The translations under genes were made by a program, and so were the position numbers. Of a DNA stretch of 64,000 bases, positions 22,098 to 42,983 are shown in pieces (position 1 is the first letter of the stretch; the number at the start of each line of letters is the position of its first letter). Source of the DNA: an uncultured Veillonellaceae bacterium (GTDB lineage: Bacteria; Bacillota; Negativicutes; JARBTT01); contig CAWDTA010000001.1 of assembly GCA_963805085.1 (NCBI GenBank), forward strand, positions 226,805 to 290,804, written 5' to 3'. Below the pieces are notes generated by a model. That model saw nothing but the letters and a program-made list of their open reading frames with translations, had not been told where the DNA came from and searched no databases.

Positions 22098-22363
22098 TTA
22101 TTTTATTTTAGCTGTTTTTAAAAATTTTAGAAAAAAACACCATATGAACAAGTGTGATCATGCAAGCAAAGACAGCTTAGTTGTCTTTGCTCTGTAACAA
22201 AAAGGTTCGATAGTTACTAGAAATTCAAAAAAAACTGTAAACTCCCTTATTTTTCTTGCGATTTTTAAAAAAATTATATTGCTCAAATAGCCTTTTTAAG
22301 ATAATATTTATATGTTATAGTGTGAGTTTGCGTTTTGTATATTTATTGATAGTAGGTGGAATT

Positions 22364-28238: not shown

Positions 28239-28364
28239 GCCGAGCATAAATAGAGGAAAAAAATAATTCTAGCTAGTCAATATAACTCTGATTGGCTTTC
28301 TTCAGAATTTGTATTTATTTTGTCGAAACTTTATGATAAAACAGACACATTAAGGAGCTTTGCT

Positions 28365-29651
28365 ATGGAAAATCAAGGGAAAAATAAAACTACAACTACT
28401 AAAAAGCAGGTAAAAGGTAGTTCACGCAAAACTTCAAGTAAACGGCCGTGGGCAGTGCTTGGTATCGCAATGCTGCTGGTTGGTACTTATTTTTATTTTA
28501 TTAATTATGAGAATAAAGATAAAGAGAGAGCAATGGAGCAAATCCAGAATTATACGATAGAAAAAACAGGCGCTGGCACAAATGCTAATTTTACAGAAAA
28601 AACAAAGCAAATCCATACTGTTGTTGATAAAGTATTGCAAGATAAGAATGTGACGGTGCTTGATACAACGCAAGCCAGTAAGACGGTCAAACGACAGAAA
28701 ATAGAAGGAAACATTTCCTGGAATGCACGGCAAATGCCAGTTTCGATTGCAAATGGTGCTGTAGACGAATTGAGAGCTGCTCTTGATAAAGCGTTAAATA
28801 AAATTGGTGCAAAGATTATAAACACAGAACCAGATCAATATAATGGAAATGCAGTCATGCGATTGGATATTGGTATTGAAGATGAACTTGATGGAGATCA
28901 AGTCACAATTATCGCCGATAAATTGTATGTAATGCAGAAAAAAACTTCGTTGACAGATAAATCTCCTCCTCCAGCAAGCAAAGGTGGAAGTAAGGCAAAA
29001 TTAGCGCTTGTGATTGATGATTTTGGCTATACAGAAGAGCCAATCAATGCGTATGAAGGTATTGATCGGCCATTGACTTTTGCGATATTACCCAATCACC
29101 CCTACAGTAAAGAAGCCGCAAATCGTGGCTATAAAAGTGGTCGCCAGATTATTTTGCATTTACCAATGGAAGCAATGAGCAGTGCGGCAAAGGTAGAAGT
29201 ACAAACGATTAATGTGAATATGAGTGATGCTGAAATAAGAGCAATGGTCAATGAATTAACAGAAGCAGTGCCGCATATTATTGGTGTGAATAATCATCAA
29301 GGTTCAAAAGCAACTTCAAATCAACAGGTTATGAAAGTTGTTTTAAATGAACTTGCAGGTAAGGGATTATTTTTTATCGACAGCAAAACAATTGCGAGCT
29401 CAATTGCTTATGATACCGCAAGGGCAGTTGGTGTTAAAACTGGAGAAAATAAAATTTTTCTTGATAATAGTAGTGATGTAGATGAAATAAAAAAACAATT
29501 GCGGCAAGCGGGAAATATTGCTTTGAAAAATGGCAGCGCAATTGCAATAGGCCATGCACGTTTAAATACGGCAAAAGCAATCAAGGAACTTATTCCTGAA
29601 TTAGAAGCACAAGGGATAGATTTTGTATTTGCCTCGGAACTGCTAAAATAA
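28365..29651 (+). CDS. Divergent polysaccharide deacetylase family protein (YibQ-like) with an N-terminal membrane anchor
   Basis: ATG 28365 follows AAGGAG; the ORF track starts at TTG 28320. It has a Lys-rich N-terminus and one TM helix. The C-terminal half (LALVIDDFGY, FAILPNHPYS, NNHQGSKAT) is typical of the YibQ family. Confidence 0.75.
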   Translation: MENQGKNKTTTTKKQVKGSSRKTSSKRPWAVLGIAMLLVGTYFYFINYENKDKERAMEQIQNYTIEKTGAGTNANFTEKTKQIHTVVDKVLQDKNVTVLDTTQASKTVKRQKIEGNISWNARQMPVSIANGAVDELRAALDKALNKIGAKIINTEPDQYNGNAVMRLDIGIEDELDGDQVTIIADKLYVMQKKTSLTDKSPPPASKGGSKAKLALVIDDFGYTEEPINAYEGIDRPLTFAILPNHPYSKEAANRGYKSGRQIILHLPMEAMSSAAKVEVQTINVNMSDAEIRAMVNELTEAVPHIIGVNNHQGSKATSNQQVMKVVLNELAGKGLFFIDSKTIASSIAYDTARAVGVKTGENKIFLDNSSDVDEIKKQLRQAGNIALKNGSAIAIGHARLNTAKAIKELIPELEAQGIDFVFASELLK

Positions 29652-29658
29652 AAATATA

Positions 29659-29687
29659 TTGACAAATATCCAATAAAATAATACTAT
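29659..29687 (+). promoter_or_regulatory. Sigma-A-type promoter of the riboswitch-pel transcription unit
   Basis: TTGACA (29659-29664), 17 nt spacer, TACTAT (29682-29687). Confidence 0.6.
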
Positions 29688-29717
29688 AAGCTCGTATACT
29701 GTTTGAATTGGTAAAAT

Positions 29718-29805
29718 TTTATTGGCAAACTTGTTGAAAAGTAAGGGCGCAAAGCTATGGGTCTAACGGTTTATATAATGAACTTACGACTGCCAGGTTA
29801 CAGAC
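29718..29805 (+). promoter_or_regulatory. c-di-GMP-I (GEMM-I) riboswitch aptamer
   Basis: The sequence is GGCAAAC-UUGUU-GAAA-AGUAAG-GGCGCAAAGCUAUGGGUCU...ACGACUGCCAGGUUAC. The hallmark blocks GGCAAAC, a GNRA-capped 6-bp hairpin, CGCAAAGC, GGGUCU and GAC-nn-GCC-GGUUAC occur in the order and spacing I recall for clostridial and Vibrio GEMM-I RNAs. One deviation is GGGCGC instead of GGACGC. Confidence 0.75.
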
Positions 29806-29836
29806 ATCAACTGTCTAACCTAGCAGTCTTTTTTAT
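29790..29836 (+). terminator. Intrinsic terminator forming the riboswitch expression platform
   Basis: CTGCCAGGTTACAG (29790-29803) pairs with CTGT-CT-AACCTAGCAG (29811-29826). That gives 13 bp with one mismatch and a 2-nt bulge, followed by TCTTTTTTATTATT. The 5' arm is shared with the 3' strand of the aptamer. Confidence 0.75.
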
Positions 29837-30006
29837 TATTAGGGAACAAGTCGATTTTTAAGGTGAGACACGATGGAATAAGACGTTGTGAAAAAATATT
29901 GGGTGGCTTTTATAGGAAAAATTTGGAATAGTTATTCATAAACAGTACAGTAAATAAGATCCCAAAATTATTCTTTAGATTTCTTGATAAAAGATAGGGG
30001 GATAAT

Positions 30007-32208
30007 ATGCGTATATTGATTACAGGTGGATATGGGTTTATAGGGTCTCATGTTGCAGAACGTTTTTCTAAAGAAGGGCATCAAGTTGTGGTGGTGGATG
30101 CTCTTTTGGCGGGGTCCAAAGAAAATCTGACAGTAAAGCATACCTTTTATCAGTTGAATATTGCTGATAAAAAATGTGAAGAGGTATTTAGGGTCAACAA
30201 TTTTGATGTGGTTGTTCATCTTGCAGCACAAGTAGATGTCAACACTTCAGAGAATAATCCATGTTTGGATATTGAATCTAATATTCTTGGCCTTGTTAAT
30301 ATGCTAGATTTAGCAAGTAAATATCATGTCAAAAAATTTATTTTTGCATCGTCTGCAGCAGTATATGGTAATGCGGAAACAATGCCTATTACAGAACGAG
30401 CTCCATTAAAGCCAATATCCGTTTATGGGATCAATAAAGTAAATGGAGAAGAGTATTGCCTGAAATGGAAAGAGATATATGGGTTAAATACGGCTATCGT
30501 ACGTTTTTCCAATGTTTACGGTCCTCGCCAAAGTGTAAAAGGAGAAGGTGCAGTCATTCCTGCCTTTATTACAAAGGTACTAAAAAGTGAGAAAATCACG
30601 ATTTATGGTAGTGGCAAACAAATAAGAGATTATGTTTATGTAGAAGATATTGTAGATGCTTTATATCGTCTTGCGATGTACAACAAAGAAGTTGAGATTA
30701 TGAACGTATCCACGAATACAGAATGTAACTTAGATGAGCTAGTGAATATGTTATCAACCTACGGAAAAATAAAAGAAATTGAATATAAAGAAAAGCGGCA
30801 AGGAGATATTGACAAATCTAAGTTAGATAATTCTCAATGCATAAAAGAATTGGGGTGGTCACCCAAATATACTTTGCAAGAAGGTTTAGGAAAAACTTAT
30901 CAATGGTATAAGAATGAACTAGCTAGCCAATCAGTACAAGGGACTGAAGAAAATATGACAGTAAAATTTTTGTATCATAAATTTGCAGTGGCTAGACCTT
31001 ATATAGAAAATTTACTAATGTTTTGTATTATGCTAGCGTTGACCTTAACGAATACTTATGGGTCGATCATAAATACAAGTATAGGTTTGGATTATAATTA
31101 TATCTATATTGTTGCTATGGGACTTTTATATGGTAAAAAACAATCCATACCAGCGACTATTCTTTCCTCAGCATTGCTTATGTATAGTTTCTTATTACAA
31201 GGTGCTGATTTCGTAGCGATTGCTTATCAATCACAACATATTGTTCATTTTGCTACTTATTTATTTATTGGTGTTGTGACTGGTTACGTTACAGATAGTA
31301 GAGAAAGAGTTGCTTCAGATCAAAATATTGTCTTGAAAAATACAAAAGAGCGCTATCAATTTCTTGAAACAATGTATTTAGAGAATGTGACAATTAAAGA
31401 TAAACTTTATAAGCAAATTGTAAATTCTAATGATAGCTTAGGAAAGACGTATCAGATTATTCATAAACTAGATAGCATTGAGGTAGAAAAAATATTTACA
31501 GCCTCCAATGAAGTTGTAGCGGAAATTATGCACACTGATTCTGTTGCGATTTATATTGTTGGTAAAAATGGTTATTATTTAAGACAAAAAACGAGAACGA
31601 GTGAAAAACTAGATCATTTGCCGAGGTCTTTAAAAATTGAAAGCTTTGATTACTTAAAAAAGATGATGAAAGATAAAAAGGTTTTTACGAATAAACGTTT
31701 AAACAAAGATTGTCCTCATATGGCAGCCCCCGTTATCTTTAATAATGATGTAATCGCGGTGTTGCAAATTTATCAGTTACCATTTGAAAGTTTAAATCTT
31801 TATCATGAGAATTTGCTGAAGATTACGGCGATGCTTATTTCGGAAGCTTTAGGAAAAGCATATTTACATGAGCAAAGCGTGCAAGATAAAAAATATATTG
31901 GAGGAACTCGGATTCTTATTGCTGAGGAGTTTGAAAAAATTCAATTAGAAATGGCACTTCGGCAAAAAAATAGTAACCAATTATCAGTTGCATTGATTAA
32001 AATTTTAACGGAATCGAAAGATTATAACCAAATCTATAAAGAGATCACAGGAGTTATTAGAGATGAAGACTTTATAGGGGTAAAAAAAGATGGTTATGTT
32101 TATGTTATGCTGCTTGATATCAGTGCTGATATGGTTTTTGAAGTACAAAAAAGGATTAAAAAAGTTGGCTTAGACACAGTTGATATGATAGGTGATACCC
32201 ATGACTGA
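30007..32208 (+). CDS. pelD: Fusion protein: NAD-dependent sugar epimerase (PelX/GalE-like SDR) + 4-TM + GAF + degenerate GGDEF c-di-GMP receptor (PelD-like)
   Basis: 733 aa with SD AGGGGG. Residues 1 to about 310 form an extended SDR (ILITGGYGFIGSH, YGINK). Hydrophobic helices cover about 325-430. The C-terminus carries R685-D-E-D688 followed by FIGVKKDGYVYVML, an RxxD I-site five residues ahead of a degenerate GGDEF position as in PelD. Confidence 0.8.
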   Translation: MRILITGGYGFIGSHVAERFSKEGHQVVVVDALLAGSKENLTVKHTFYQLNIADKKCEEVFRVNNFDVVVHLAAQVDVNTSENNPCLDIESNILGLVNMLDLASKYHVKKFIFASSAAVYGNAETMPITERAPLKPISVYGINKVNGEEYCLKWKEIYGLNTAIVRFSNVYGPRQSVKGEGAVIPAFITKVLKSEKITIYGSGKQIRDYVYVEDIVDALYRLAMYNKEVEIMNVSTNTECNLDELVNMLSTYGKIKEIEYKEKRQGDIDKSKLDNSQCIKELGWSPKYTLQEGLGKTYQWYKNELASQSVQGTEENMTVKFLYHKFAVARPYIENLLMFCIMLALTLTNTYGSIINTSIGLDYNYIYIVAMGLLYGKKQSIPATILSSALLMYSFLLQGADFVAIAYQSQHIVHFATYLFIGVVTGYVTDSRERVASDQNIVLKNTKERYQFLETMYLENVTIKDKLYKQIVNSNDSLGKTYQIIHKLDSIEVEKIFTASNEVVAEIMHTDSVAIYIVGKNGYYLRQKTRTSEKLDHLPRSLKIESFDYLKKMMKDKKVFTNKRLNKDCPHMAAPVIFNNDVIAVLQIYQLPFESLNLYHENLLKITAMLISEALGKAYLHEQSVQDKKYIGGTRILIAEEFEKIQLEMALRQKNSNQLSVALIKILTESKDYNQIYKEITGVIRDEDFIGVKKDGYVYVMLLDISADMVFEVQKRIKKVGLDTVDMIGDTHD

Positions 32209-33100
32209 TGAAGTGATTTTAATTTTAATCTTGGCAAATGGTATTTTATCACTCTTATATTTTATTTGGGCTGCAAAAAAGAGTAAATCTCAGGCGATTA
32301 GTGAAGTTGCGATGATGCTTTTGATTCCTTTTTTTGGTCCTGGTTTTATTCTTATTATTAAATTGGCAGAAGTGTTTAAATTGAAACAAGAAGATCCATC
32401 CTACATGTACCAAGAATTTAAAAATAAACACTTGATTTTGGGTGATTTTATGCAGCATGAAGCAAATATTATTCCAATTAATGACGCATTGTTTATTGAT
32501 GATACAAATACAAAGCGTACTTTACTTACCGATGCAATCAAGCAAAATGTTTTGCAAAATAATAATATTTTGCTGAAAGTAGTTCGAGATTCCGATAGGG
32601 AAGTATCTCATTATGCTGTTTCGATGGTTACAAATATCATTGGAAATTTGGAAGTAATTCTATTTCAACTTGAAAAGAAGTTACTAGAAGATCCTAAAAA
32701 TATAGAGTGTTTAATGAAATATGCTGATGCAATGTCCGAATATTTACAAATTGGTTTTCTTGATCCAATTTCGCAAAAGAAAAGTGAAGAAATTTATATT
32801 AATATTCTTGAAAACATAATATCTTTAAAAGTTACTGATAAACGGTATTTCATTGAAAAAATCAATTATGAAATCAAACAAGAAAACTATAAAAAAGCAG
32901 AGTTTGATTGCAGGAATTTCATGGATATATTTCCTAATGATGAAGATCCATATCTTATGTATATAAAATTATATGGTCAGTTGAACGAATATCAAAAAAT
33001 GCAAGAAAAATTACAAGAATTAAAAGCTTGCCCGATTAAATTTACTAGGAATGCTCTGGAAATTATTCGGTTTTGGGGGGGAGAAGAGGAATATGTATAA
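32201..33100 (+). CDS. pelE: PelE-like membrane protein with helical-repeat (TPR-like) domain
   Basis: ATG 32201 follows AGGTGA and overlaps the upstream stop. It has two N-terminal TM helices and then a helical, TPR-like soluble part. The call rests mainly on architecture and its position between the PelD-like and PelA-like genes. Confidence 0.55.
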   Translation: MTDEVILILILANGILSLLYFIWAAKKSKSQAISEVAMMLLIPFFGPGFILIIKLAEVFKLKQEDPSYMYQEFKNKHLILGDFMQHEANIIPINDALFIDDTNTKRTLLTDAIKQNVLQNNNILLKVVRDSDREVSHYAVSMVTNIIGNLEVILFQLEKKLLEDPKNIECLMKYADAMSEYLQIGFLDPISQKKSEEIYINILENIISLKVTDKRYFIEKINYEIKQENYKKAEFDCRNFMDIFPNDEDPYLMYIKLYGQLNEYQKMQEKLQELKACPIKFTRNALEIIRFWGGEEEYV

Positions 33101-34919
33101 AAAAAATATTGCAATTGTTCTTTCTCTCGTTTTTCTTTTGGGCTTGTTTTTCCAATACAACCGCAGTGATGGTTTTATTCGTTTGATCAAAAACAAAAAT
33201 GTTTCCGCAATTAGCGGAGACTTCAGTCTTGGTAAAGAAGAGCAAAAAAATATACCAAGGGAGCGGATGCTTCTCGTCTATGACCCAAGTAGTGTGCATA
33301 GTCTTTTCTTACGTCATAATATTGAGCATTTAGCTAAATACTTGAAGAAAGAGATTGTAGCAGTACCAGCTAAAGAAGCACTTAGTGAAAATTTGGATTA
33401 TGATGGTATTATTATAGCACTGGAAAATTTAGACGATTTCAATGATATGGAAAAAGTGAATCAATATGCTAGTCAAGGTGGTAATGTATATTTTATGATT
33501 CGCCCGATACCAGGTGTTAAAATAAATGAAGTTTATCATGACTTGGGGATCAGTCGTATGGGGGATATTGTTAATACTAAAGGAATTAAAATGAATACCA
33601 ATTTACTCATCGGAGCAAAAGGTTTTGAGTTAAATAACGATATCTATACGACTTCTGCGATAAAATGTGAACTTACCAATGAAGCTAATATTCATATGAG
33701 CTCCCAAGAAGGAATTCCTCTTCTGTGGGAAACAAGCATAGGAAAAGGCAAATATATCGTCTATAATGGCTCAGGGTTAGGCGATAAGATGAATCGTGGA
33801 TTAATGACAGCAATGATAGGTTTAGGCAAATCGGTGTATCTTTATCCAGTTGCAGCAATTAAGTTATCCTTTATTGATGATTTCCCCGCACCTATCCCAG
33901 AGGGGTATTACGATAAAATTTATGATGAATTTAAATTATCTACACCGCAATTTTATCGTCAGGTTTGGTGGCCCTATATGTTGTCTTTAGCAGAAAAATA
34001 TGATATTAAGTATACGGGATTGATTATTGAAACCTATAATGATGCTATAGTTCCTCCTTTCAATCCTGATATAGAGACTCCTGACAAGAATAATCTTATT
34101 ATTTATGGTAGAGAACTTTTGAAAAGTGGTGGAGAACTTGGTATTCATGGGTATAATCATCAATCATTAGCACCAGAAGGCTATAATCAAAAAGCTTTAG
34201 GATATAAACCCTGGCAGAGTCAAAAAGATATGATACTGTCATTGACAGAGTTGAAAAGATATGTAGAAAACGTATATCCAGATTATAAAATAAAGGCATA
34301 TGTACCACCGTCTAATATTTTAAGTCCAGAGGGTAAGCAAGCGCTTATACAGGTGTTTCCTGATTTGAAAATGATTTGCTCCCTCTATACTGGACAGGCT
34401 GAAGAAAGAGAAGCTTATATTCAAGATTTTGAAAAAAGCCCAGATGGTATTTTAGAATTGCCACGTGTTTCTTCTGGGTATATGCGCAATGATCAGTTTG
34501 ATTGGGAAACTATCAATGTTATCAATTTCATAGGGGTATTTTCTCACTTTGTTCATCCAGACCAAATCTTTTATGAAGAGAGTCAAGGCTTAACTTGGCG
34601 TGAAATGAGCGAAGACTTTGAATCATTGATGAAAGAAATACAAGAAAACTATGGATGGCTTAGGAGCTCTACTGCCTCTCAAGGCGCAGAGTATCTTGAA
34701 GAATACTTTAATGTAGATTATCGGATTGTCGAAAAACCCGATGAAATGACAATATATTGTTGGGGTTATAAAAAAGAATCATATTTTATTATGAAAACGA
34801 CAAAAAAAATTATAAGATATGAAGGCTGTCAAGTGGAACATATTGATGATAATGCATATTTAGTGAAAATTTCCCAGCCGGAAGTTAAGCTGAAGTTTGA
34901 AAGTGAGGGTAAGCCGTGA
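33093..34919 (+). CDS. pelA: DUF2194-type polysaccharide deacetylase (PelA deacetylase-domain homologue, PelA_DA-like)
   Basis: ATG 33093 follows GGGGGGAGAAGAGGAA and overlaps the pelE stop by 8 nt. It has an N-terminal signal/anchor (IAIVLSLVFLLGLFF). CE4-like motifs are SFIDDFPAP and LGIHGYNHQS. Confidence 0.7.
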   Translation: MYKKNIAIVLSLVFLLGLFFQYNRSDGFIRLIKNKNVSAISGDFSLGKEEQKNIPRERMLLVYDPSSVHSLFLRHNIEHLAKYLKKEIVAVPAKEALSENLDYDGIIIALENLDDFNDMEKVNQYASQGGNVYFMIRPIPGVKINEVYHDLGISRMGDIVNTKGIKMNTNLLIGAKGFELNNDIYTTSAIKCELTNEANIHMSSQEGIPLLWETSIGKGKYIVYNGSGLGDKMNRGLMTAMIGLGKSVYLYPVAAIKLSFIDDFPAPIPEGYYDKIYDEFKLSTPQFYRQVWWPYMLSLAEKYDIKYTGLIIETYNDAIVPPFNPDIETPDKNNLIIYGRELLKSGGELGIHGYNHQSLAPEGYNQKALGYKPWQSQKDMILSLTELKRYVENVYPDYKIKAYVPPSNILSPEGKQALIQVFPDLKMICSLYTGQAEEREAYIQDFEKSPDGILELPRVSSGYMRNDQFDWETINVINFIGVFSHFVHPDQIFYEESQGLTWREMSEDFESLMKEIQENYGWLRSSTASQGAEYLEEYFNVDYRIVEKPDEMTIYCWGYKKESYFIMKTTKKIIRYEGCQVEHIDDNAYLVKISQPEVKLKFESEGKP

Positions 34920-36343
34920 AAATTTGTATGCTGGTAGAAGGAAGTTACCCTTATATTGTCGGTGGTGTGTCATCCTGGGTACAAATGCTAATTTCAGGCA
35001 TGCCAGAACATCAGTTTATTATCTATTCCATCGCTGCTGAGGAAAAAAATAAAGGAAAGTTTAAATATAAATTACCTGCAAATGTAATTGAGGTGCGTGA
35101 AGTTTTTTTAGATAGCATTTTAAATTTAAAATGTCCATCTGCAGGTAACTATAAATTAAGCCCAAAAGAAAGAGGAAACTTAGAAAGACTAATTTGTGGC
35201 GAAAGCGATATTGATTTAGAAACCTTGTTAATGACATTTCGCTCAAATAAAAAAAATCGCGATATTTTGGAAATTTTCATGAGTTTTGATTTTTTTGATG
35301 TTATTACAAGTGCATATAAGAAAAAATTTAGTTATTTACCATTTACGGACTTTTTTTGGACGATTCGTTCGATGTTATTGCCACTTTTTTTTATTCTTCA
35401 GCAAGATTTGCCTGATGCTGATGTTTATCATAGCGTTGCCGCTGGATATTGTGGTGCTGTTGGTGGTCTAGCGGCTACTATCTATAAAAAACCATTTATA
35501 TTAACGGAACATGGTATCTATTCTAGGGAAAGAGAAGAAGAAATTATTAAGTGTGATTGGGCAAAGGGCGATTTTAAATCTGTGTGGATAAATTATTTTT
35601 ACAGTTTAGCTAGGCTTACCTATCAAAAATCTACCAGTGTTATTTCTTTATTTGAAAAAAATGCAGAAATTCAAATTTCTTTAGGGTGTGATTCGCAAAA
35701 AGTACAAATCATACCAAATGGAATTCATGTAGATCAATTTGAAAATATCAAGCAGCCTATTGAAGAGAAGGAAACAATCACAATTGCTGCTATAGTCAGG
35801 GTTGTCCCAGTGAAAGATATTATTACAATGATTAGAAGCTTTTTCCTTGTGAAAGAAAAAATGCCGAATACACGGTTTCTCATTATTGGTCCATGTGATG
35901 AAGATGCAGAGTATTATGAAGAATGCTTAAAACTTATTAAAACTTTAGCTATAAAAGACATTGAATTTACTGGATCGGTAGATGTAAAGCAATATATTGG
36001 TGACGTCGATATTCTAGTTTTGTCGAGTATTAGTGAAGGGCAGCCACTCGCAGTTTTAGAAGGTATGGCCAGTAGAAGGCCATTCGTAACGACTGATGTT
36101 GGTTGTTGTCGTGAATTGTTGTATGGTAGCAATGACAATTTTGGAGAAGCTGGGATTGTTGTTCCGATGATGGATTTTGAGGGGATGTCCGAAGCCATTA
36201 TTGCACTAGCAAAGGATAAAAAGCTTAGGTTCGAGATGGGAGAAAATGGGCATCGGCGAGCTTGTGAATTTTATACGATTAAGGGGTTTATTGATGATTA
36301 TAGGCGAGCATACTGTGAGGTTACTGAGGGAGTGAGTGAATAA
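34916..36343 (+). CDS. pelF: Pel polysaccharide glycosyltransferase (GT4)
   Basis: GTG start overlaps the upstream stop by 4 nt. The N-terminus MKICMLVEGSYPYIVGGVSSWVQMLI closely resembles the PelF N-terminal (DUF3492) signature. The GT4 E-x7-E region is EGQPLAVLEGMASRRPFVTTDVG. Confidence 0.9.
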   Translation: MKICMLVEGSYPYIVGGVSSWVQMLISGMPEHQFIIYSIAAEEKNKGKFKYKLPANVIEVREVFLDSILNLKCPSAGNYKLSPKERGNLERLICGESDIDLETLLMTFRSNKKNRDILEIFMSFDFFDVITSAYKKKFSYLPFTDFFWTIRSMLLPLFFILQQDLPDADVYHSVAAGYCGAVGGLAATIYKKPFILTEHGIYSREREEEIIKCDWAKGDFKSVWINYFYSLARLTYQKSTSVISLFEKNAEIQISLGCDSQKVQIIPNGIHVDQFENIKQPIEEKETITIAAIVRVVPVKDIITMIRSFFLVKEKMPNTRFLIIGPCDEDAEYYEECLKLIKTLAIKDIEFTGSVDVKQYIGDVDILVLSSISEGQPLAVLEGMASRRPFVTTDVGCCRELLYGSNDNFGEAGIVVPMMDFEGMSEAIIALAKDKKLRFEMGENGHRRACEFYTIKGFIDDYRRAYCEVTEGVSE

Positions 36344-36345
36344 GA

Positions 36346-37779
36346 ATGGCTGGAATTGGGTTTGAGTTAAAAAAACTTTTTAATAAAAAAAGCGCGATTG
36401 GTTATTTTAAAGCGTATACATATACGTCTATTGTCACAACAGGGCCGTTTGTTTTAATGACAGGTATGGTTTTGTCGATCCAATTGTTATTTCATCTGTT
36501 CAATATTTCATATTTTGATACACAAATTTATGTTGCTTCAATTATCTATCCATTTATTTTTTCACATATCATTGCGAGTGGGTTTGCTATGCTGATTACT
36601 AGATTTGTAGCAGATCAACTGTACAGTAATGAGTATGATGAAATTATTCCGTCCTTGTATGGTATGCTTTCCTTAGCATTGGGGATAGGTGCTATTTTAG
36701 CATTAGCTTTTTTCTGGAATAAGCCTTTGACGATCGAACTGAAGTTAGCGACTTATATCTTTTACATGGAAATGATTGTGATATGGATTCAAGGGGTATA
36801 TTTGAGTGCATTAAAAGATTATAAAAAAATAATACAATCTTATGCAGGCGGAGCTTTTATTGCAGTTTTTTTAGCTTTTATCATCTTGAAATCAGGAGTA
36901 TTTTCGCCAGCATTTGGTACAATGTTGTCGATGAATATTGGTGTGTTTTTCATTGCTAGTATGTTAATGCTTAATATCAAAAAATTTTTTGGCAAGAGCA
37001 GTTACAAAAATTTTTCATTTTTAGCTTACTTTGAAAGCCACTTTAGTTTATTTTTAATAAACTTATTGTATTCTATTAGCTTATATATTCCTAACATTAT
37101 GATTTGGTACGGCCCGTTGGGCATAAACATTGCGGGAACTTATATTTATGCTCCAGAATATGATATTGCAACTTTCTATGCATTTTTATCTATATTACCG
37201 GTTATGATTATGTTTGTTGTTTCTACAGAAATCCATTTTTACCAGAAGTATTCTACTTATTTTATGTATATTACAGAAAAAGGAAACTTCAAAGAAATAG
37301 AAGACGCAAGGCAAGATTTGTTGCATATTATGTGGTCAGAAATTCGTAATATTGTTGAATTTCAACTTGTTTTCACGCTGATTTTTTTATCGTTAGGTAA
37401 TTATTTTTTGCCAAAAACTGGATTGGTTCATGCGTCAGTTAATATGTATAATTTAATTGTGTTAGGTGCTTATGCTACAGGTCTAATGCAAGTGATTATC
37501 ACGTTGCTTCTTTACTTTGAAGATCGAAAAGGTGTTTTGTATCTTTGTAGCCTATTTTTAATTACTAATATTATTTTTAATTTAGGGAGTATGGTGGTTG
37601 GAGAAAATACCTATGGTTTTGGTTTTTTCCTTTCAGCTTTTTTAAGTTTGGTCATGGCAATTTGCCGCTTAATCTATTTTAGTAATAGACTTGATTATTT
37701 TATTTTTTGCTCTCGTCCTGTTTTTTGTAATCATAAAGCCGGAATTTTAACAAAACTTGTGAATCGAATTTATAGTTGA
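36346..37779 (+). CDS. pelG: Pel polysaccharide export inner-membrane protein
   Basis: 477 aa and polytopic (about 12 TM). The N-terminus MAGIGFELKKLF is the characteristic PelG start (MAGIGFELRK in Pseudomonas). Confidence 0.9.
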   Translation: MAGIGFELKKLFNKKSAIGYFKAYTYTSIVTTGPFVLMTGMVLSIQLLFHLFNISYFDTQIYVASIIYPFIFSHIIASGFAMLITRFVADQLYSNEYDEIIPSLYGMLSLALGIGAILALAFFWNKPLTIELKLATYIFYMEMIVIWIQGVYLSALKDYKKIIQSYAGGAFIAVFLAFIILKSGVFSPAFGTMLSMNIGVFFIASMLMLNIKKFFGKSSYKNFSFLAYFESHFSLFLINLLYSISLYIPNIMIWYGPLGINIAGTYIYAPEYDIATFYAFLSILPVMIMFVVSTEIHFYQKYSTYFMYITEKGNFKEIEDARQDLLHIMWSEIRNIVEFQLVFTLIFLSLGNYFLPKTGLVHASVNMYNLIVLGAYATGLMQVIITLLLYFEDRKGVLYLCSLFLITNIIFNLGSMVVGENTYGFGFFLSAFLSLVMAICRLIYFSNRLDYFIFCSRPVFCNHKAGILTKLVNRIYS

Positions 37780-37857
37780 AGAAAAGAATGACAAAGTGAA
37801 TAATGTGAATAATTTTCCAGCTTTTAAGGACGATTTTTTATTAGGGAGGCAGCTTTT

Positions 37858-39801
37858 TTGAAAAAAAAGAAGAAAAGTAAAAATTTCTATAAAATATTTG
37901 CAGTTTATGTCTGTAGTTTTTGTATTTTGCAGAGTAATGTAGAAGCGACAAATGCTGTTTCTGTTGTGGATGAAGCGAAAAATACGGCAATTTTTATGCG
38001 TGAGTCAGCAAAAAATATTGCTGAGCACCGTAAAGCCGTTGCAGATGAAAAGCAAGCCGAAGTTGTTGCTGCTGATACTGCAAAGGATGTAGCACAGTTA
38101 GAAGCGGATAAAACTGTTACGGAAAAAACATTAGCCGATGCTATTGAAGTATTAAAGAAAAACGAGGAGAATGCTAAGTTGGCTGTTTTAGAGGCTAACG
38201 AAAAAGATCGTCTAGCAAAACAGGCAATGGCTGATGAAAAGGTAGCATTAGAGGAAAAAGCATTAGCTGAGCAAGCCGTAGACGAGGCAAAAGCTGAAGA
38301 AGATAGGATAACTTATCGAGAAAATGCAGCAGTTCGGGCGGCAGAAGCACAAGCGGCCGTAGCGAGTGAAGCTGGTGCCACAGAGGCTGTTAAAGCAGTT
38401 GGATACGATGAAACTAGAATTGATGAGGCTGAGCAAAAGGTGCAGGCTATTACTGATAGAGCGTATGCTGTCGCTGAAGCGAGAAGTTTAGCTGCTGAAG
38501 CTAGAGTGAATGAGGCAGCCAGTGCGGTCGAAGTGGCTGAGAAAAGGTTAGAAGAAGCCGAAGAAAGAATAGGCTTTGCAGCAGATGCTCGTTTGGATGC
38601 CGACGAGGCCGAAAAATCTGCTCAAGAGGCAAAAAAAGATTTGTTGGAAGCAAAGTCAGATGTAGAAGAGCTTCGTACTAGCCTTGTTGAAGCGAAAAAA
38701 GAGTTAACACTTGCGCAAGCCGAACTTGTTGATGCACAATTGGTATTAGAAAATGCAAAAAAAGATTTGCAACCAGTCACGAATAGCCGTACTATGCAAC
38801 TAGAAGCTAAATATTATTCTTGGAAGGATAACCAAGGCCATAGTGGACATCAGTTTTATCAGCCTTATGATTTTAATGTGGTTGATAAAAATACTGAATA
38901 CGGATTACATACTGGTTACGTAGTGTCAAATAATAATTCAAATAGCAATGGAAATATTTCAACTTTGACAGATACGGTTGTTAATATTACTAAAACAAAT
39001 CCAAAAGAAAAGTATGCAGTTCATTATACTTTAGATGTTAATTTGCCAACAGGAAAGTCTAAGCTTAATGGTTCTGGACAAATAATGTCAGATGATTTGG
39101 TAGAAAATGCTCGTTTCGGCGAAGGATTGAATTATACACCTGGTATTAGTGTCAGTCACAAAATTGGCGAAGAGGATACTTGGACTTTGGGCACTTCCTA
39201 TGCTTTTCGCGGTAGTTATGAATATGATAGTACGATGCCTGGATCAAAGTTTGATCCGGGGACAGAATGGGCAAAAAGTCTTAATTGGCTACATGCAGGA
39301 CAAAAATGGCAATTGCTCGGGGAGTTATCCCATACGAATTACGGAATGTCAGAAGAAAACGGAATTCAGTATAGGGAAGGAAATCAATTTGATGCAAAAT
39401 TATTTTATAACTTTGTTTTAAATGCTAAACAAGATTTAATGGTTTATTATTGGTATTCGCTTGGTCGCCCTACTACGTACCCTATACCAGGTGATTATGA
39501 TGTAGAGAGTGATTTAACTCGTCACTATTTTGGTGCAGAATGGGCGAAAAAAATATCAACTACGCGAACTTTTCATGTGATGGCAAATGTAATGCACAGT
39601 ACAGGTAGCACTTATGACCCGATTGCCGCTTTATATGTAAATGATCGGACTAAATATAGTGGTGGTATTGGCTATGATGTTGCATTGTCACCTAACCAAA
39701 CGATGTCCCTTGCGGTTGAAAGTTTCTATATGAAAGATCATTCGCCAGATAATAGTTATCATGGTTGCAATTTATATTTAAGATATTCAGCAAATTTCTA
39801 A
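37858..39801 (+). CDS. Secreted protein with about 270-aa Ala/Glu/Lys coiled-coil region and about 335-aa beta-rich C-terminal domain ending in Phe; candidate outer-membrane Pel export component
   Basis: TTG start 8 nt after GGGAGG. The signal peptide is MKKKKKSKNFYKIFAVYVCSFCILQSNVEA/TN. Residues about 36-305 are heptad-like and helical. Residues about 312-647 are rich in Tyr/Gly/Asn/Ser with alternating hydrophobic residues. The C-terminus is YLRYSANF, an OMP-like terminal aromatic. Confidence 0.6.
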   Translation: MKKKKKSKNFYKIFAVYVCSFCILQSNVEATNAVSVVDEAKNTAIFMRESAKNIAEHRKAVADEKQAEVVAADTAKDVAQLEADKTVTEKTLADAIEVLKKNEENAKLAVLEANEKDRLAKQAMADEKVALEEKALAEQAVDEAKAEEDRITYRENAAVRAAEAQAAVASEAGATEAVKAVGYDETRIDEAEQKVQAITDRAYAVAEARSLAAEARVNEAASAVEVAEKRLEEAEERIGFAADARLDADEAEKSAQEAKKDLLEAKSDVEELRTSLVEAKKELTLAQAELVDAQLVLENAKKDLQPVTNSRTMQLEAKYYSWKDNQGHSGHQFYQPYDFNVVDKNTEYGLHTGYVVSNNNSNSNGNISTLTDTVVNITKTNPKEKYAVHYTLDVNLPTGKSKLNGSGQIMSDDLVENARFGEGLNYTPGISVSHKIGEEDTWTLGTSYAFRGSYEYDSTMPGSKFDPGTEWAKSLNWLHAGQKWQLLGELSHTNYGMSEENGIQYREGNQFDAKLFYNFVLNAKQDLMVYYWYSLGRPTTYPIPGDYDVESDLTRHYFGAEWAKKISTTRTFHVMANVMHSTGSTYDPIAALYVNDRTKYSGGIGYDVALSPNQTMSLAVESFYMKDHSPDNSYHGCNLYLRYSANF

Positions 39802-39836
39802 ATGGCAGAATATCTAAGCGTGAATGATAGAAAGGG

Positions 39837-40922
39837 GTGGTATGCAAAGTGCCAAAAGCTGTTCTACGATATATGTTAATCGTTTTAAGTTTCATAGCGT
39901 TTAGTTTGACTTTAGAGTTGACGTCGGCTACGAACACCCAAGATACAATGCTCACTTATTTACCGAAGCTGTATACCAGTCAAAGTGACACAAAAAAAGT
40001 TGAGGCTATGCAAAATATGGACTATAAAGAAAAGATGATTTCATTGATTGAGAAAATTAGCAAGTATTCAAAATCTAAAAATCAGTCTTTTCAGCTGATT
40101 GGTAATAATGGATTAGAGTTATTTCGAACCGAGGAAGTTGGTATGCAAAACGTAAATCGTATTCTTAGTAGTGTCGATGGAATTCTTTTAGAAGGTTTTT
40201 ATTATGGCTGGGAAATGGAAGATGATAAAAGAACGTCAGCAGCAGTCCGAGCAATACTTAATCGAGGCTTAGAAATACCGGTAAGCAAGAACTTGCCAGT
40301 ACTGAATATTGATTATTGTGATAGTATTCGAAAGGTTGAAAAATCTTACCAATTGAATGATGGTAGTAATTTTATTGACTTTGCGGCAAGTAATCGTGAA
40401 CTGGATACGATTCCAACTGATCCACCTCAGATTTATAACGAGAACGACAATACGATTCGTGAGTTGAAGCAAGTAAAAAATTTTATTGCCTTACTTAATC
40501 CACAAAAATTTAAAACCAAGAAAAGTTATTTGGAAAGCTTAAAAAATACAAACTATGATTTACTGATTATTGATATGTATTTTGATGGAGAGCGTCTATT
40601 GCCGAGCGATGTGGAATCGCTCAAAGTGAAGAAAAATGGAGCGACTAGACTGGTATTTTCTTATATGAGTGTTGGTGAAATAGAAAATTATCGTCCGTAT
40701 TGGAAGAGTGAATGGTCAAAGAATCCACCTAAATGGATTGCTGAGATAAATCCAGACTGGGATGGTAATTTTAAAGTCAAATATTGGAATAAAGAGTGGG
40801 AAAATATTCTATTTGGTTTTCCTGATTCTTATTTAGATCTTATCTTGGCATCAAAATTTGATGGGGCATTTATGGATGTGATTGATGCCTTTGAGTATTT
40901 TGAGAGTAAAGATAATGAATAA
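39837..40922 (+). CDS. GH114-like endo-alpha-1,4-(N-acetyl)galactosaminidase (PelA hydrolase-domain homologue), secreted
   Basis: Start is GTG 39837 or GTG 39849, after AAAGGGG. It has a signal peptide (LIVLSFIAFSLTLELTSA). Motifs LLIIDMYFDG, YMSVGEIENYRPYW, KVKYWNKEW and FDGAFMDVIDAFEYF are typical of the GH114/TM1410-like TIM-barrel family. Confidence 0.75.
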   Translation: MVCKVPKAVLRYMLIVLSFIAFSLTLELTSATNTQDTMLTYLPKLYTSQSDTKKVEAMQNMDYKEKMISLIEKISKYSKSKNQSFQLIGNNGLELFRTEEVGMQNVNRILSSVDGILLEGFYYGWEMEDDKRTSAAVRAILNRGLEIPVSKNLPVLNIDYCDSIRKVEKSYQLNDGSNFIDFAASNRELDTIPTDPPQIYNENDNTIRELKQVKNFIALLNPQKFKTKKSYLESLKNTNYDLLIIDMYFDGERLLPSDVESLKVKKNGATRLVFSYMSVGEIENYRPYWKSEWSKNPPKWIAEINPDWDGNFKVKYWNKEWENILFGFPDSYLDLILASKFDGAFMDVIDAFEYFESKDNE

Positions 40923-40938
40923 CTTAAATCCCAGCAAC

Positions 40939-40978
40939 AAAAATGGAGTTATTACAAAACTGTAACAACTCCATTTTT
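40939..40978. terminator. Bidirectional intrinsic terminator between the pel locus and the convergent MCP gene
   Basis: AAAAATGGAGTTATTACA / TGTAACAACTCCATTTTT, with A-run and T-run flanks on both sides. Confidence 0.85.
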
Positions 40979-40988
40979 ATGTATTATT

Positions 40989-42983
40989 TTAAACTTTAAA
41001 TTTATTTACTGCTTCTGCTAATTCCTGTGCTAAGTTAGAAAGTTCATTGCTCGAGGCGGAAATTTCTTGCATAGTAGCGGATTGTTCTTCTGTAGTCGCA
41101 GAAATGCTTTGTGTTTGTTCAGAGCTTTGTTTGCTCATATGATCAATTTCATTAACTGCAGTAACGATTTTTACGCGTTCATTCTCAATATCTTCAACTT
41201 TATTCGAGATTTGATTGATTTTCTCTGTAGTAGCAGCAATTACTTGAGCGATCTCTTGAAAGGCTAGGCCAGCATCATTAACCACTTTTGTGCCAATTTC
41301 AGCTTGGTCAGTTTCTTCCTTCATACCCGATATTACAGTTTCAGTTTCGTGCTGAATGTCATTGATCAATAAAGTTATTTCATGCGCGGCCTCTTGTGAT
41401 TGCTCGGCTAATTTGCGGACTTCTTCAGCGACAACCGAGAAACCACGTCCTTGCTCGCCAGCTCTAGCCGCTTCAATAGCAGCATTTAAGGCAAGTAGAT
41501 TGGTTTGAGCAGCAATATTAGAAATGGTATCAATAATTTGGCCAATCTGTGTGGATTTTTCACCCAGTTGATTTGCTCGTTTTGTAGATTCGATGACTGA
41601 TGATTGAATATTGCCCATTTGGTCAATGGCTTTTTCAATCGATACATTACCAGTGGCAATTGTTTTTGTTGCTGTTGTCGTTTGTTCGGATACTGTTTGT
41701 ACATTTTCAGTTACAGAATGGATATGTTCCGAGATGTTATTCACTAGATGATGCGTATTTTCAACCTGTAACATTTGTGATTCAGCATTGGTGGCAACAA
41801 GAGATATTGCTTCAGCTGAAGTTGCGGCACCTTGCGACACTTCTTCACTGCTTGAAGTAAGTTCTTCGCTGGCGGCACTTACTTTTTCGGCACTGACTTG
41901 AATTTTTTTCGTTAGGGTTCTTAATTGGTTCACCATATTATTATAAGAATGGCCTAATGCACCAATCTCATCTTCTGCATAAACTGTAATGGTTTGCGTT
42001 AAATCACCGTCAGCAACTAATTTTGTCTTTTCTGCCAGAACTCTCATTGGTTGCGTTAATATTTTGGTTAAAACAAAGGCAATGATAACAACAAAAAATG
42101 TAGTTGCTAAACAAGTAAATAGTGAAAAAATAAGTTGTTTGCGAGAATTTGAGATTGAATCGCTTTTACTCGTTTCAGCGACTACCGACCAGTGGGATTG
42201 ATTAATTGGGGCATAACCGGCAATGGTATCTACACCGTCTGGCGTAGTATAATCAACAGCACCAGAATTGGTTAACATAGCGTTAGCTACCGGTTCTAAT
42301 TTATCGACACTGGTGATATTTTTTACCAACTCTTCATTAGGATGAACCAGTAAAGTTCCTTTAGAATCAGCTAAGAAGGCATAGCCTAATTGATTCTTTT
42401 TTGCATTTGTCATTATATTTTTAAGAATACTTAAATCCATAGTCGCAGAAATAGAACCGATTACTTTATCTTGTGAATTTTTAATGGGAACAGAAAGCAC
42501 AAAGATCGCTTTGTTATCGGCTTTAGAATAGATCAAATCACTTACGGATACTTGAGCAGAACCATTTAATATGGGTTTTATGTATGAACGATCGCTCCCG
42601 TTTTGATTATTACCAGCGTTGCGGGCGATTTGCTGTCCAGTGGTATCACAGATAAACATATCGCTAATATCTGGAAAGCTTGTCTTGAAAGATTGTAATA
42701 AAGGAATTAAATCCTGCGGATTCATTGCCTGAACCGTGGGTAGTTTTGTCATTGATCTAAGTAGATTAACTCTGCTTAATAGCATGTCATCGATTTCCTT
42801 AGCGGTATTGATAGCGGTATTTTGATTTAGCGTATGCGCAGTTTCTGTTTCAGCATTATAAGAGATTATACTATTAAAAATAGTAACAATGAATAGTGGG
42901 ATGAGTGCGATTGTCGCAAACCCAAAGGTAAGCTTGGTTTTTAGTTTCGTTGTTCGATCGAGAGTTTTTAAAAATGTGAACAT
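40989..42983 (-). CDS. Methyl-accepting chemotaxis protein with periplasmic double-Cache-type sensor
   Basis: 664 aa with two TM helices flanking a sensor of about 260 aa, then HAMP. The highly conserved signalling hairpin is [35 protein letters not shown]. Confidence 0.9.

Follow-up and report, generated by a model that had tools for sequence, protein, structure and literature searches.

A seven-gene operon for the exopolysaccharide Pel was found in a 64,000-nucleotide stretch of bacterial DNA (contig CAWDTA010000001.1 of assembly GCA_963805085.1, positions 226,805 to 290,804; hereafter the window). The operon is almost certainly a chromosomal pel locus of the "Gram-positive" pelD-E-A_DA-F-G type. 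Taken together, the evidence suggests, with a probability of about 0.7, that this Pel operon has been extended for a two-membrane envelope, with a cyclic di-GMP (c-di-GMP) riboswitch turning transcription on and the product of the sixth open reading frame (ORF6) exporting the polymer. ORF6 is the new part of the locus.

In the proposed pathway, for which we infer the response to the ligand, the chemistry of the polymer, and the localisation and export role of ORF6, transcription would start from a promoter near position 29659. At low c-di-GMP the leader terminator would form, and at high c-di-GMP the bound aptamer would keep the strand shared by the two structures, allowing RNA polymerase to continue. 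The SDR domain of ORF1 would provide UDP-GalNAc by 4-epimerisation, and the PelD-like GAF/GGDEF half of the same protein would bind c-di-GMP at its RxxD I-site, licensing PelF. PelF would polymerise the chain, which PelG, assisted by PelD and PelE, would carry over the inner membrane. The membrane-anchored deacetylase PelA_DA would partly de-N-acetylate it, giving the alpha-1,4-GalNAc polymer expected of a Pel system. ORF6 would then pass the polymer through the outer membrane, with the C-terminal barrel as the pore and a hairpin of about 21 nm replacing the TPR scaffold of PelB and spanning the periplasm back towards PelG and PelA_DA. Finally, the secreted, permuted GH114-like ORF7 would trim the polymer. 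Because the operon has both a riboswitch and a PelD-type receptor, c-di-GMP would act twice, on transcription and on the enzyme complex, a two-tier control.

Core genes of the pel operon

The operon is a single transcription unit on the + strand (29659-40978) that comprises a promoter, an aptamer with its terminator, seven co-directional genes and a bidirectional terminator (Table 1). A first-pass annotation of the window had described seven tightly coupled ORFs; independent gene calls for the same contig agree with their coordinates, and the stop/start overlaps that it listed were exact when read from the sequence. Position 29659, given there as the start, coincides with the -35 hexamer of a sigma-70-like promoter, and 40978, given as the end, is the final base of a terminator hairpin. 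The identification of PelF and PelG, the DUF2194 deacetylase and the GH114-like hydrolase, all proposed in that annotation, were borne out by the profile searches described below, and the D-E-A-F-G core order was also supported. A metagenome scan anchored on the PelD part of ORF1, in which ORFs were labelled with hidden Markov models (HMMs), recovered 72 loci. The order SDR-PelD, ORF2, DUF2194, PelF, PelG, ORF6 family and GH114 recurred throughout the related loci.

The central enzymes were readily assigned. ORF4 matched the NCBIfam PelF model NF038011 with 367 bits (cut-off, 100) as well as DUF3492 (PF11997, 7e-80) and Glycos_transf_1, and ORF5 matched the Pfam PelG family (PF16933) over its full length with 431.6 bits. 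PelG has 12 hydrophobic segments, consistent with the 12-helix MOP bundle described for this protein (PMC13254593), and, judged by the charges of its loops, its two termini are cytoplasmic. ORF3, which has one N-terminal transmembrane segment, belongs to DUF2194 (PF09960), and its predicted de-N-acetylase activity accords with a PDB match to 9ZAU (466 residues aligned, E = 3.5e-81). By its description and chain length, 9ZAU fits B. cereus PelA_DA. That enzyme is a single-pass CE26/CBM114 protein of 610 aa, and a 2026 paper reports its structure and its de-N-acetylase activity (PMC13254593).

ORF7 matched Glyco_hydro_114 (PF03537) with 49.2 bits (cut-off, 27; 5e-13) and TIGR01370 with 145 bits, under the equivalog cut-off of 181. 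The annotation as a GH114-like hydrolase needs one correction. In the alignment with the TM1410 structure in the PDB, residues 223-344 of ORF7 correspond to residues 23-139 of the target (E = 2e-21) and residues 52-178 to residues 150-274; since the halves of the TIM barrel occur in swapped order, the protein is circularly permuted. ORF7 has an N-terminal hydrophobic segment and two alternative starts (39837 and 39873), and in related loci its place in the operon is taken by homologues of similar size (325-354 aa).

The claim that ORF1 is an SDR epimerase fused to PelD stood for the epimerase, which was recognised by the Epimerase HMM, and in a different way for PelD. The first 310 residues have UDP-glucose 4-epimerase (4ZRM, 8e-68) as nearest PDB match and retain the SDR catalytic motifs GGYGFIG (GxxGxxG, residues 7-13), S115 and Y140-x3-K144. 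Assignment of the remaining 420 residues by sequence was given up, as all profiles failed and the combination of AlphaFold2 (AF2) and Foldseek alone gave PelD. The AF2 model, built from ten homologues, had a predicted local distance difference test score (pLDDT) of 80.9, and its top five Foldseek matches in the PDB were all P. aeruginosa PelD (6e-9 to 3e-7), with an alignment of about 273 columns spanning the GAF and GGDEF domains. Pfam gave weak matches to GAF (2e-3) and DUF4118 (7e-4), and GAF is annotated in the homologues. Moreover, an RxxD motif (R685-D-E-D688) lies five residues before KDGYV, the degenerate GGDEF, and its arginine and aspartate are invariant in the homologues. The C-terminal part of ORF1 is, on the basis of the model, a PelD-type receptor by architecture and not by Pfam membership, with c-di-GMP binding predicted.

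The annotation of ORF2 as PelE-like stood insofar as the protein has two transmembrane helices and its position between pelD and pelA_DA is kept in every related locus; the TPR signals were weak and no family model matched. Its identity as PelE rests mainly on the conserved position.

The c-di-GMP riboswitch in the leader

The leader contains a c-di-GMP-I riboswitch aptamer. This element had been proposed in the first-pass annotation, and the covariance model RF01051 matched over positions 1-87 of 87, scoring 70.2 bits where the gathering threshold is 35 (E = 1e-11). The candidate promoter, whose function is suggested by its match to the consensus, lies 27 nt 5' of the aptamer. A simple terminator scan missed the leader terminator, which has an internal mismatch and a long stem. 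Minimum free energy (MFE) folding recovered it as a hairpin at 29788-29828 (-20.5 kcal/mol, z = -4.7) followed by UUUUUUAUUAUU. The aptamer's 3' strand, GACUGCCAGGUU, doubles as the 5' arm of this terminator. Because the two structures have this strand in common and the U-tract follows directly, folding of the aptamer and folding of the terminator are mutually exclusive, and ligand binding should therefore permit read-through. The predicted folds make an ON switch with c-di-GMP as the inducer very probable.

Homologous aptamers (73-76 bits) were present before pel in the two loci most closely related to the window. Locus L020 has one aptamer of 76 bits before SDR-pelD, and L019 has tandem aptamers of 75 and 76 bits (L019:7553-7641 and 7760-7848). 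The predicted overlap of aptamer and terminator recurs in L020 and in both L019 aptamers, and the terminators in L019, L020 and the window begin in the CUGCCAG strand of the aptamer. The L019 aptamers, each with its own terminator, stand before an extra GH114 gene and pelD. A second c-di-GMP-I aptamer was found in L020 (L020:11954-12040) directly after the pel operon and before a gene for a secreted TPR-repeat protein, which possibly begins a pgaA-like operon; the contig ends there.

The direction of the switch could also be the opposite, or the riboswitch could work on translation or RNA stability, so that c-di-GMP would not induce the operon. Riboswitches of the c-di-GMP-I class exist in both ON and OFF kinds, the direction was deduced solely from predicted folding, and a segment of about 165 nt lies between the leader terminator and the start of ORF1. 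However, in four of four homologous leaders the 5' arm of the terminator is the 3' strand of the aptamer with the U-tract directly after it, and the operon also encodes a PelD-type activation, with which induction by c-di-GMP accords. An OFF switch or a post-transcriptional mode is accordingly very unlikely, and we retain c-di-GMP-dependent read-through.

The riboswitch was rejected as a general feature of Negativicutes pel loci, as only the window, L019 and L020 carry c-di-GMP-I aptamers. None was detected at the Rfam gathering threshold in 14 related loci (L001, L002, L004, L005, L007, L008, L010, L011 and L013-L018), in L013, L015 and L018 by a sensitive Rfam E-value search, or in any other related locus examined with nhmmer and a five-aptamer profile. 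Since the aptamers are confined to the window and its two closest relatives, riboswitch control is a feature of this subclade, which corrects the first-pass annotation in its scope. The full-length match at twice the gathering score and the terminator-based platform resemble those of other RF01051 riboswitches, as does the tandem arrangement in L019. The difference lies in the pel genes downstream, which appear to be new for the class within the open-access literature searched, where no paper linking a c-di-GMP riboswitch to pel was found.

ORF6 and its proposed role in export across the outer membrane

ORF6 has a signal peptide followed by an Ala- and Glu-rich region (residues 38-304). In the AF2 model, built from 36 sequences (pLDDT 82.7), helices 38-179 and 186-304 form an antiparallel coiled-coil hairpin of about 21 nm, and residues 309-646 form a barrel of roughly 16 strands (16-17 long beta segments) that ends in ...YSANF. 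The model agrees with the first-pass description of a secreted coiled-coil plus beta-rich protein. Foldseek matched it in the PDB to three BcsC entries (1e-12 to 2e-11), to PelB of the PelBC structure from 2025 (2e-9) and to generic porins (about 1e-8). The alignments to BcsC and PelB covered 390-616 columns, the helical part included, and the TM-scores were 0.39-0.50 for BcsC and PelB and 0.62 for PgaA. PelB, BcsC and PgaA have a 16-strand barrel in common (PMC12141448). The earlier view that the gene encodes an unrelated outer-membrane protein (OMP) is therefore doubtful, because the predicted barrel is closest to those of BcsC and PelB; what is lacking is the TPR scaffold and PelC. The accepted rule is that synthase-dependent systems of diderm bacteria export through a TPR-coupled porin (PMC7890745); as an exporter, ORF6 would depart from it. 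The net charge of the barrel is -9, and an acidic barrel would suit a cationic polymer.

Sequence comparison gave no family assignment. Neither ORF6 nor its beta-domain matched any Pfam or NCBIfam model even at E <= 10, there was no TPR match in Pfam, and ORF6 did not belong to a PelB or BcsC porin-family profile. An exhaustive phmmer search of 1.84 billion proteins placed 348 representative clusters in the family. Close members have 550-770 aa and distant ones are barrel-only (about 380 aa); one of the latter is assigned by NCBI to the alphaproteobacterium Parvularcula. The most conserved stretch of the family falls in a long loop that joins predicted strands 5 and 6 (residues 397-424 in the model; conserved block 395-428, N-x-P-T-G ... 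M-S-D-D-L-V-E ... R-F-G-E-G-x-N, in ORF6 NLPTG...MSDDLVE...RFGEG). The loop is not beta-structured and has a lower pLDDT; as a speculation, it may enter the lumen as a plug or constriction like porin L3 or Plug-I of PelB.

The host appears to have the outer membrane that such a protein requires, as the first-pass annotation had supposed. Negativicutes have an outer membrane with lipopolysaccharide (LPS), and all named relatives of ORF1 or ORF6 are Negativicutes: a Massilibacillus metagenome-assembled genome (MAG), Phascolarctobacterium, Acidaminococcaceae, Selenomonas, Anaeromusa and Sporomusaceae. Judged from these sequences, the host is close to Massilibacillus, a synonym of Anaerosinus (Sporomusaceae). 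The window also contains a CptA/EptA-like phosphoethanolamine transferase gene (22256-24073; NCBIfam PRK10649, 1e-83, below the cut-off), a marker of LPS/lipid A modification that accords with a diderm envelope. The reported absence of PelB and PelC was confirmed for the 64-kb window, in which no ORF resembled either protein and every ORF of at least 100 aa was otherwise assigned; the pel operon has no additional small gene for a PelC lipoprotein.

The neighbourhood survey recommended with the first-pass annotation linked the OMP to pelG. An ORF6-family gene followed pelG in 37 of the 39 loci with at least 2.2 kb of sequence past pelG, representing 13 clusters at 50% identity. In most loci the start of the OMP gene overlaps the pelG stop by 4 nt, and the protein begins with a signal peptide and ends in F or L. 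The same seven genes are present in Selenomonas sp. oral taxon 126, whose genome is complete, the sixth product being homologous to ORF6 (8e-39). A narrower alignment of the ORF6 family worked for the genome scan but missed divergent Selenomonas-type members, which were found by anchoring on PelD. One exception among the 39, L088, is a deletion variant that resembles L087 except that the OMP gene is missing and GH114 follows pelG directly. In the other, the distant locus L083, genes for CotH and a VTC polyphosphate polymerase follow pelG; in another distant locus, L085, which carries DUF4832, the contig ends just past pelG. CotH, VTC and DUF4832 are accessory genes of monoderm clostridial and streptococcal pel loci (PMC7112168), so these OMP-less loci act as a natural control. 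A different deletion variant, L054, has a truncated DUF2194 gene directly before GH114, and pelF, pelG and the OMP gene are missing.

In Anaeromusa acidaminophila, PelG and the OMP form one polypeptide of 1,101 aa in two independent assemblies (L016:16192-19497 and L017), and a second fusion, P0120, has 1,098 aa and is 62% identical to it. Both contain an extra hydrophobic, signal-peptide-like segment with an A-x-A site after the predicted-cytoplasmic C-terminus of PelG, which, from its predicted character, would bring the coiled coil and the barrel into the periplasm. Directly 5' of pel, the Anaeromusa locus has a pgaABCD-like operon (L016:2731-8721) encoding a 765-aa TPR protein, a PgaB-like deacetylase/GHL13 protein, the GT2 enzyme PgaC, and PgaD. 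This bacterium therefore has a classical TPR-type component for poly-N-acetylglucosamine and a coiled-coil OMP for Pel.

The family is also found outside pel operons, and the nearest relatives of the ORF6 beta-domain outside the window are not pel-linked. For P0001, P0004, P0006, P0012, P0049 and P. faecium DSM 14760, the OMP gene stands after five other conserved genes, as the last conserved gene of an operon with a processive GT2 synthase and a putative CE4-like deacetylase. The six conserved genes, seen at L008:3503-11005 (Phascolarctobacterium faecium DSM 14760) and in L001, L002, L004, L005 and L091, encode a 260-aa protein, the GT2 synthase, a 335-aa protein that faintly matches bactofilin, the 615-aa putative deacetylase, a 300-aa protein and the ORF6-family OMP. 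The operon is common, because member cluster P0004 has 749 sequences, and it looks like a second synthase-dependent exopolysaccharide (EPS) system of Negativicutes with the same outer-membrane module. The 615-aa and 300-aa genes were considered as homologues of ORF3 and ORF2 and rejected (E > 1); the OMP alone is shared. The beta-domain of ORF6 is 47-49% identical to the GT2-linked P0001-P0003 and P0049, 48.6% to the pel-linked L019 protein and 27% to the Selenomonas type, which suggests an export module exchanged between EPS systems.

Several observations weigh against the overall interpretation: 1) BcsC and PelB lead ordinary porins by just 1-4 orders of E-value, and the TM-scores are moderate (0.39-0.62), 2) the distant relatives of ORF6, if matched by Pfam at all, match the generic families PF13505 and PF13557 and not the PelB/BcsC porin families, 3) the gap between pelG and ORF6 in the window is 78 nt, with no overlap, 4) the predicted hairpin places the N-terminus of ORF6 at the outer-membrane end, which fits the PelG fusions only if the internal signal peptide is cleaved, 5) the closest orthologue of ORF6 (L007:7334-9298, Massilibacillus sp. 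MAG JARBTT010000001; barrel 86% identical) stands alone, flanked by genes for a DEAD-box helicase and phosphofructokinase, 6) loci of the Selenomonas, Anaeromusa and Acidaminococcales types have no riboswitch, which is thus not integral to Negativicutes pel, 7) PelD_GGDEF (PF16963) does not match ORF1 even at E <= 10 and was found in 0 of 26 homologues, and NCBIfam, phmmer and a 10-sequence profile against the PDB also fail to detect the PelD part, and 8) the TPR signals of ORF2 are weak (TPR_19, E = 0.019; family profile against PDB TPR/HAT structures, 0.013-0.2). Within the 19 kb examined around the stand-alone gene in L007 there were no EPS genes, no pel genes and no riboswitch; pel may have been lost or moved in this genome, or the OMP may have a broader role. 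Together with the GT2-linked relatives, it calls for caution in regarding ORF6 as strictly dedicated to Pel.

The stand-alone copy and the GT2-linked relatives would be expected if the OMP gene of the window were a recent insertion or replacement from a GT2-type operon, its linkage to pel being partly accidental and the protein serving several polysaccharide systems or none in particular. The identities given above, as high to GT2-operon members as to L019 and far lower to the Selenomonas type, fit such an origin, as do the gap with its own ribosome-binding site in the window and a gap of 763 nt in L019, where a 4-nt overlap is the norm elsewhere. However, the order pelG - OMP - GH114 is the same in 13 diverged lineages, and selection therefore keeps an OMP of the ORF6 family at this position. 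In addition, the ORF6 gene lies inside the riboswitch-to-terminator unit, in which no internal terminator was found, and its GC content at third codon positions (GC3) matches both the operon and the chromosome. A recent, partly accidental acquisition is consequently rather unlikely, and ORF6 is preferred as a conserved component of the Pel system.

It could be such a component and still not be the pore. ORF6 might be an outer-membrane anchor or tether whose coiled coil binds Pel or peptidoglycan and holds the polymer on the cell, an OmpM-like staple of the outer membrane, or an autotransporter-like surface fibre with its coiled coil exposed to the outside; Pel would then leave the cell otherwise. 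OmpM-type proteins of Negativicutes consist of an SLH domain, a coiled-coil stalk and an outer-membrane barrel, so that coiled coil plus barrel is also a tether architecture in this class. The autotransporter barrels NalP and EstA were among the Foldseek matches (about 3e-8), and the L007 orthologue without EPS neighbours suggests a function that is not strictly tied to Pel. Against a tether, no SLH or other peptidoglycan-binding domain was detected in ORF6, and the best structural matches were EPS porins aligned along the helical part as well as the barrel. The operon encodes no other outer-membrane protein and the window neither PelB nor PelC; fusion to the C-terminus of PelG would put the coiled coil in the periplasm; and the family recurs as the last conserved gene of an unrelated synthase-dependent operon, as expected of a shared export module. 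A role other than the pore is thus unlikely, and ORF6 is probably the outer-membrane exporter.

There is about an even chance that ORF6 goes further and founds an undescribed class of outer-membrane exopolysaccharide exporters of diderm Firmicutes. Such a class would combine a BcsC/PelB-like barrel with a coiled-coil hairpin of about 20 nm, would be interchangeable between Pel and GT2/deacetylase systems and would dock on the inner-membrane exporter without PelC, under two-tier c-di-GMP control in this lineage. Docking on PelG is included because the natural fusions imply it. If this is correct, the new class would break the rule that synthase-dependent systems of diderm bacteria use a TPR-porin.

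Known systems, feature coordinates and neighbouring genes

The nearest described relative of the operon is pelDEA_DAFG of B. cereus ATCC 10987, with PelA_H and GalE (Whitfield et al. 2020, PMC7112168). Both have the same core gene order, with ORF2 in the place of PelE; in both, PelA exists as two proteins, a membrane-anchored deacetylase and a GH114-like hydrolase, and PelD is a c-di-GMP receptor, predicted in the window, with an RxxD site. In contrast to B. cereus, the host of the window has, by its relatives, an outer membrane, a gene for a predicted outer-membrane barrel stands between pelG and the hydrolase gene, the circularly permuted hydrolase belongs to the operon itself, PelD carries the epimerase as a fused domain in place of a separate GalE, and transcription is under a c-di-GMP-I riboswitch, a word that does not occur in PMC7112168. 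The pelDEA_DAFG core, SDR-PelD fusions and separate PelA_H hydrolases have all been described (PMC7112168); an N-terminal SDR domain with intact motifs on PelD was reported there for Brevibacillus. Because the core, the fusion and the hydrolase were published, the novelty is narrower than the first-pass annotation implied. Its statement that the combination was undescribed holds for the riboswitch, as no pel-linked example was found in open-access texts, and fails for the other three elements.

In its model, ORF6 resembles P. aeruginosa PelB/PelC (PDB 9H80; PMC12141448), BcsC and PgaA: an acidic C-terminal barrel with roughly 16 predicted strands is preceded by a helical module that would lie in the periplasm, and the gene belongs to a synthase-dependent EPS operon. 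Unlike PelB and BcsC, it has no TPR repeats, which are replaced by the two-helix antiparallel coiled coil, and no detectable sequence similarity to the porin families. The window lacks the PelC lipoprotein ring, and the OMP gene comes after pelG, to which it is fused in two species.

With OmpM, compared by description only, ORF6 shares the bacterial class and the order of an N-terminal coiled-coil stalk and a C-terminal outer-membrane barrel. It differs in lacking SLH, in its far longer coiled coil, which is predicted to be a hairpin, and in being encoded in EPS operons, whereas OmpM is a housekeeping porin or tether.

Riboswitch, Negativicutes and Selenomonas were not mentioned in the main text of PMC7112168 or PMC7112194, nor were four further Negativicutes genera in PMC7112168. 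A 2026 genome paper merely records PelF and PelG homologues in S. sputigena, and no open-access paper was found that combines Negativicutes, Pel, exopolysaccharide and outer membrane. The Pel literature searched treats Firmicute pel loci as "Gram-positive" and does not address the export of polysaccharide across the outer membrane of Negativicutes. Selenomonas and Phascolarctobacterium, abundant genera of the mouth and gut, are among the diderm Firmicutes. Because ORF6 is conserved, coupled to pelG, fused to it in two species and common to a second EPS system, it opens questions on envelope-spanning secretion and on the evolution of the Firmicute outer membrane. The coiled-coil-barrel OMP family, the natural PelG fusions and the double control by riboswitch and PelD merit follow-up: the family is a potential genomic marker for EPS export in Negativicutes and a potential target against oral Selenomonas biofilms, and the double control would illustrate how, in nature, a single second messenger can gate a pathway at the level of transcription and again at that of enzyme activity.

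Table 1. Coordinates of the features of the pel operon in the window
Feature	Position	Strand	Basis
Sigma-70-like promoter (TTGACA, 17 nt, TACTAT), candidate	29659..29687	+	Consensus scan, 10/12 matches
c-di-GMP-I riboswitch aptamer (RF01051)	29714..29805	+	Infernal, 70.2 bits
Intrinsic terminator / expression platform	29788..29840	+	MFE folding
ORF1, N-terminal SDR-family UDP-hexose 4-epimerase-like domain	30007..30936	+	Pfam Epimerase, 1e-62
ORF1, C-terminal PelD-like c-di-GMP receptor (transmembrane bundle, GAF, degenerate GGDEF)	30937..32208	+	Fold comparison
ORF1/ORF2 junction	ORF2 ATG 32201, ORF1 stop 32208	+	Sequence reading
ORF2, PelE-like membrane protein (2 N-terminal transmembrane helices, helical TPR-like domain)	32201..33100	+	Position
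ORF2/ORF3 junction	ORF3 ATG 33093, ORF2 stop 33100	+	Sequence reading
ORF3, PelA_DA-type Pel de-N-acetylase (DUF2194; single N-terminal transmembrane segment)	33093..34919	+	Pfam, 8e-148
ORF3/PelF junction	PelF GTG 34916, ORF3 stop 34919	+	Sequence reading
ORF4, PelF glycosyltransferase (GT4)	34916..36343	+	NCBIfam NF038011
PelF/PelG junction	PelF stop 36343, PelG ATG 36346; gap 2 nt	+	Sequence reading
ORF5, PelG, 12-transmembrane MOP-superfamily exporter	36346..37779	+	Pfam PelG, 5e-129
PelG/ORF6 junction	78 nt, GGGAGG ribosome-binding site, TTG start 37858	+	Sequence reading
ORF6, secreted, predicted outer-membrane protein, proposed Pel exporter	37858..39801	+	AF2 model, Foldseek
ORF7, secreted, circularly permuted GH114/TM1410-family TIM-barrel hydrolase (PelA_H-like)	39849..40922	+	Pfam Glyco_hydro_114
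Bidirectional intrinsic terminator	40939..40978	.	12+5 bp hairpin between A-run and U-run

The window is chromosomal, with pur and his operons and pcrA-ligA-gatCAB. The first-pass impression that the locus is AT-rich was correct, the difference being small (33.9% GC against 37.5% in the rest of the window). In GC3 the pel genes (0.24-0.31) do not differ from the housekeeping genes around them (0.288 +/- 0.026). The AT-richness is therefore a matter of composition and no evidence of foreign origin, and horizontal transfer as deduced from AT-richness was ruled out.

The product of the gene 5' of the operon (28320-29651) is a "divergent polysaccharide deacetylase" of the YibQ type (PF04748, 6e-74), extended by about 230 aa at its N-terminus. 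The gene was considered as an eighth member of the operon and rejected, as the promoter and riboswitch both lie 3' of it and its place beside pel is not kept in the relatives. At the other end, the terminator hairpin (-19.3 kcal/mol, z = -5.2; 0 of 200 shuffled sequences folded as well) is common to the operon and a convergent chemoreceptor gene on the - strand (40989-42983).

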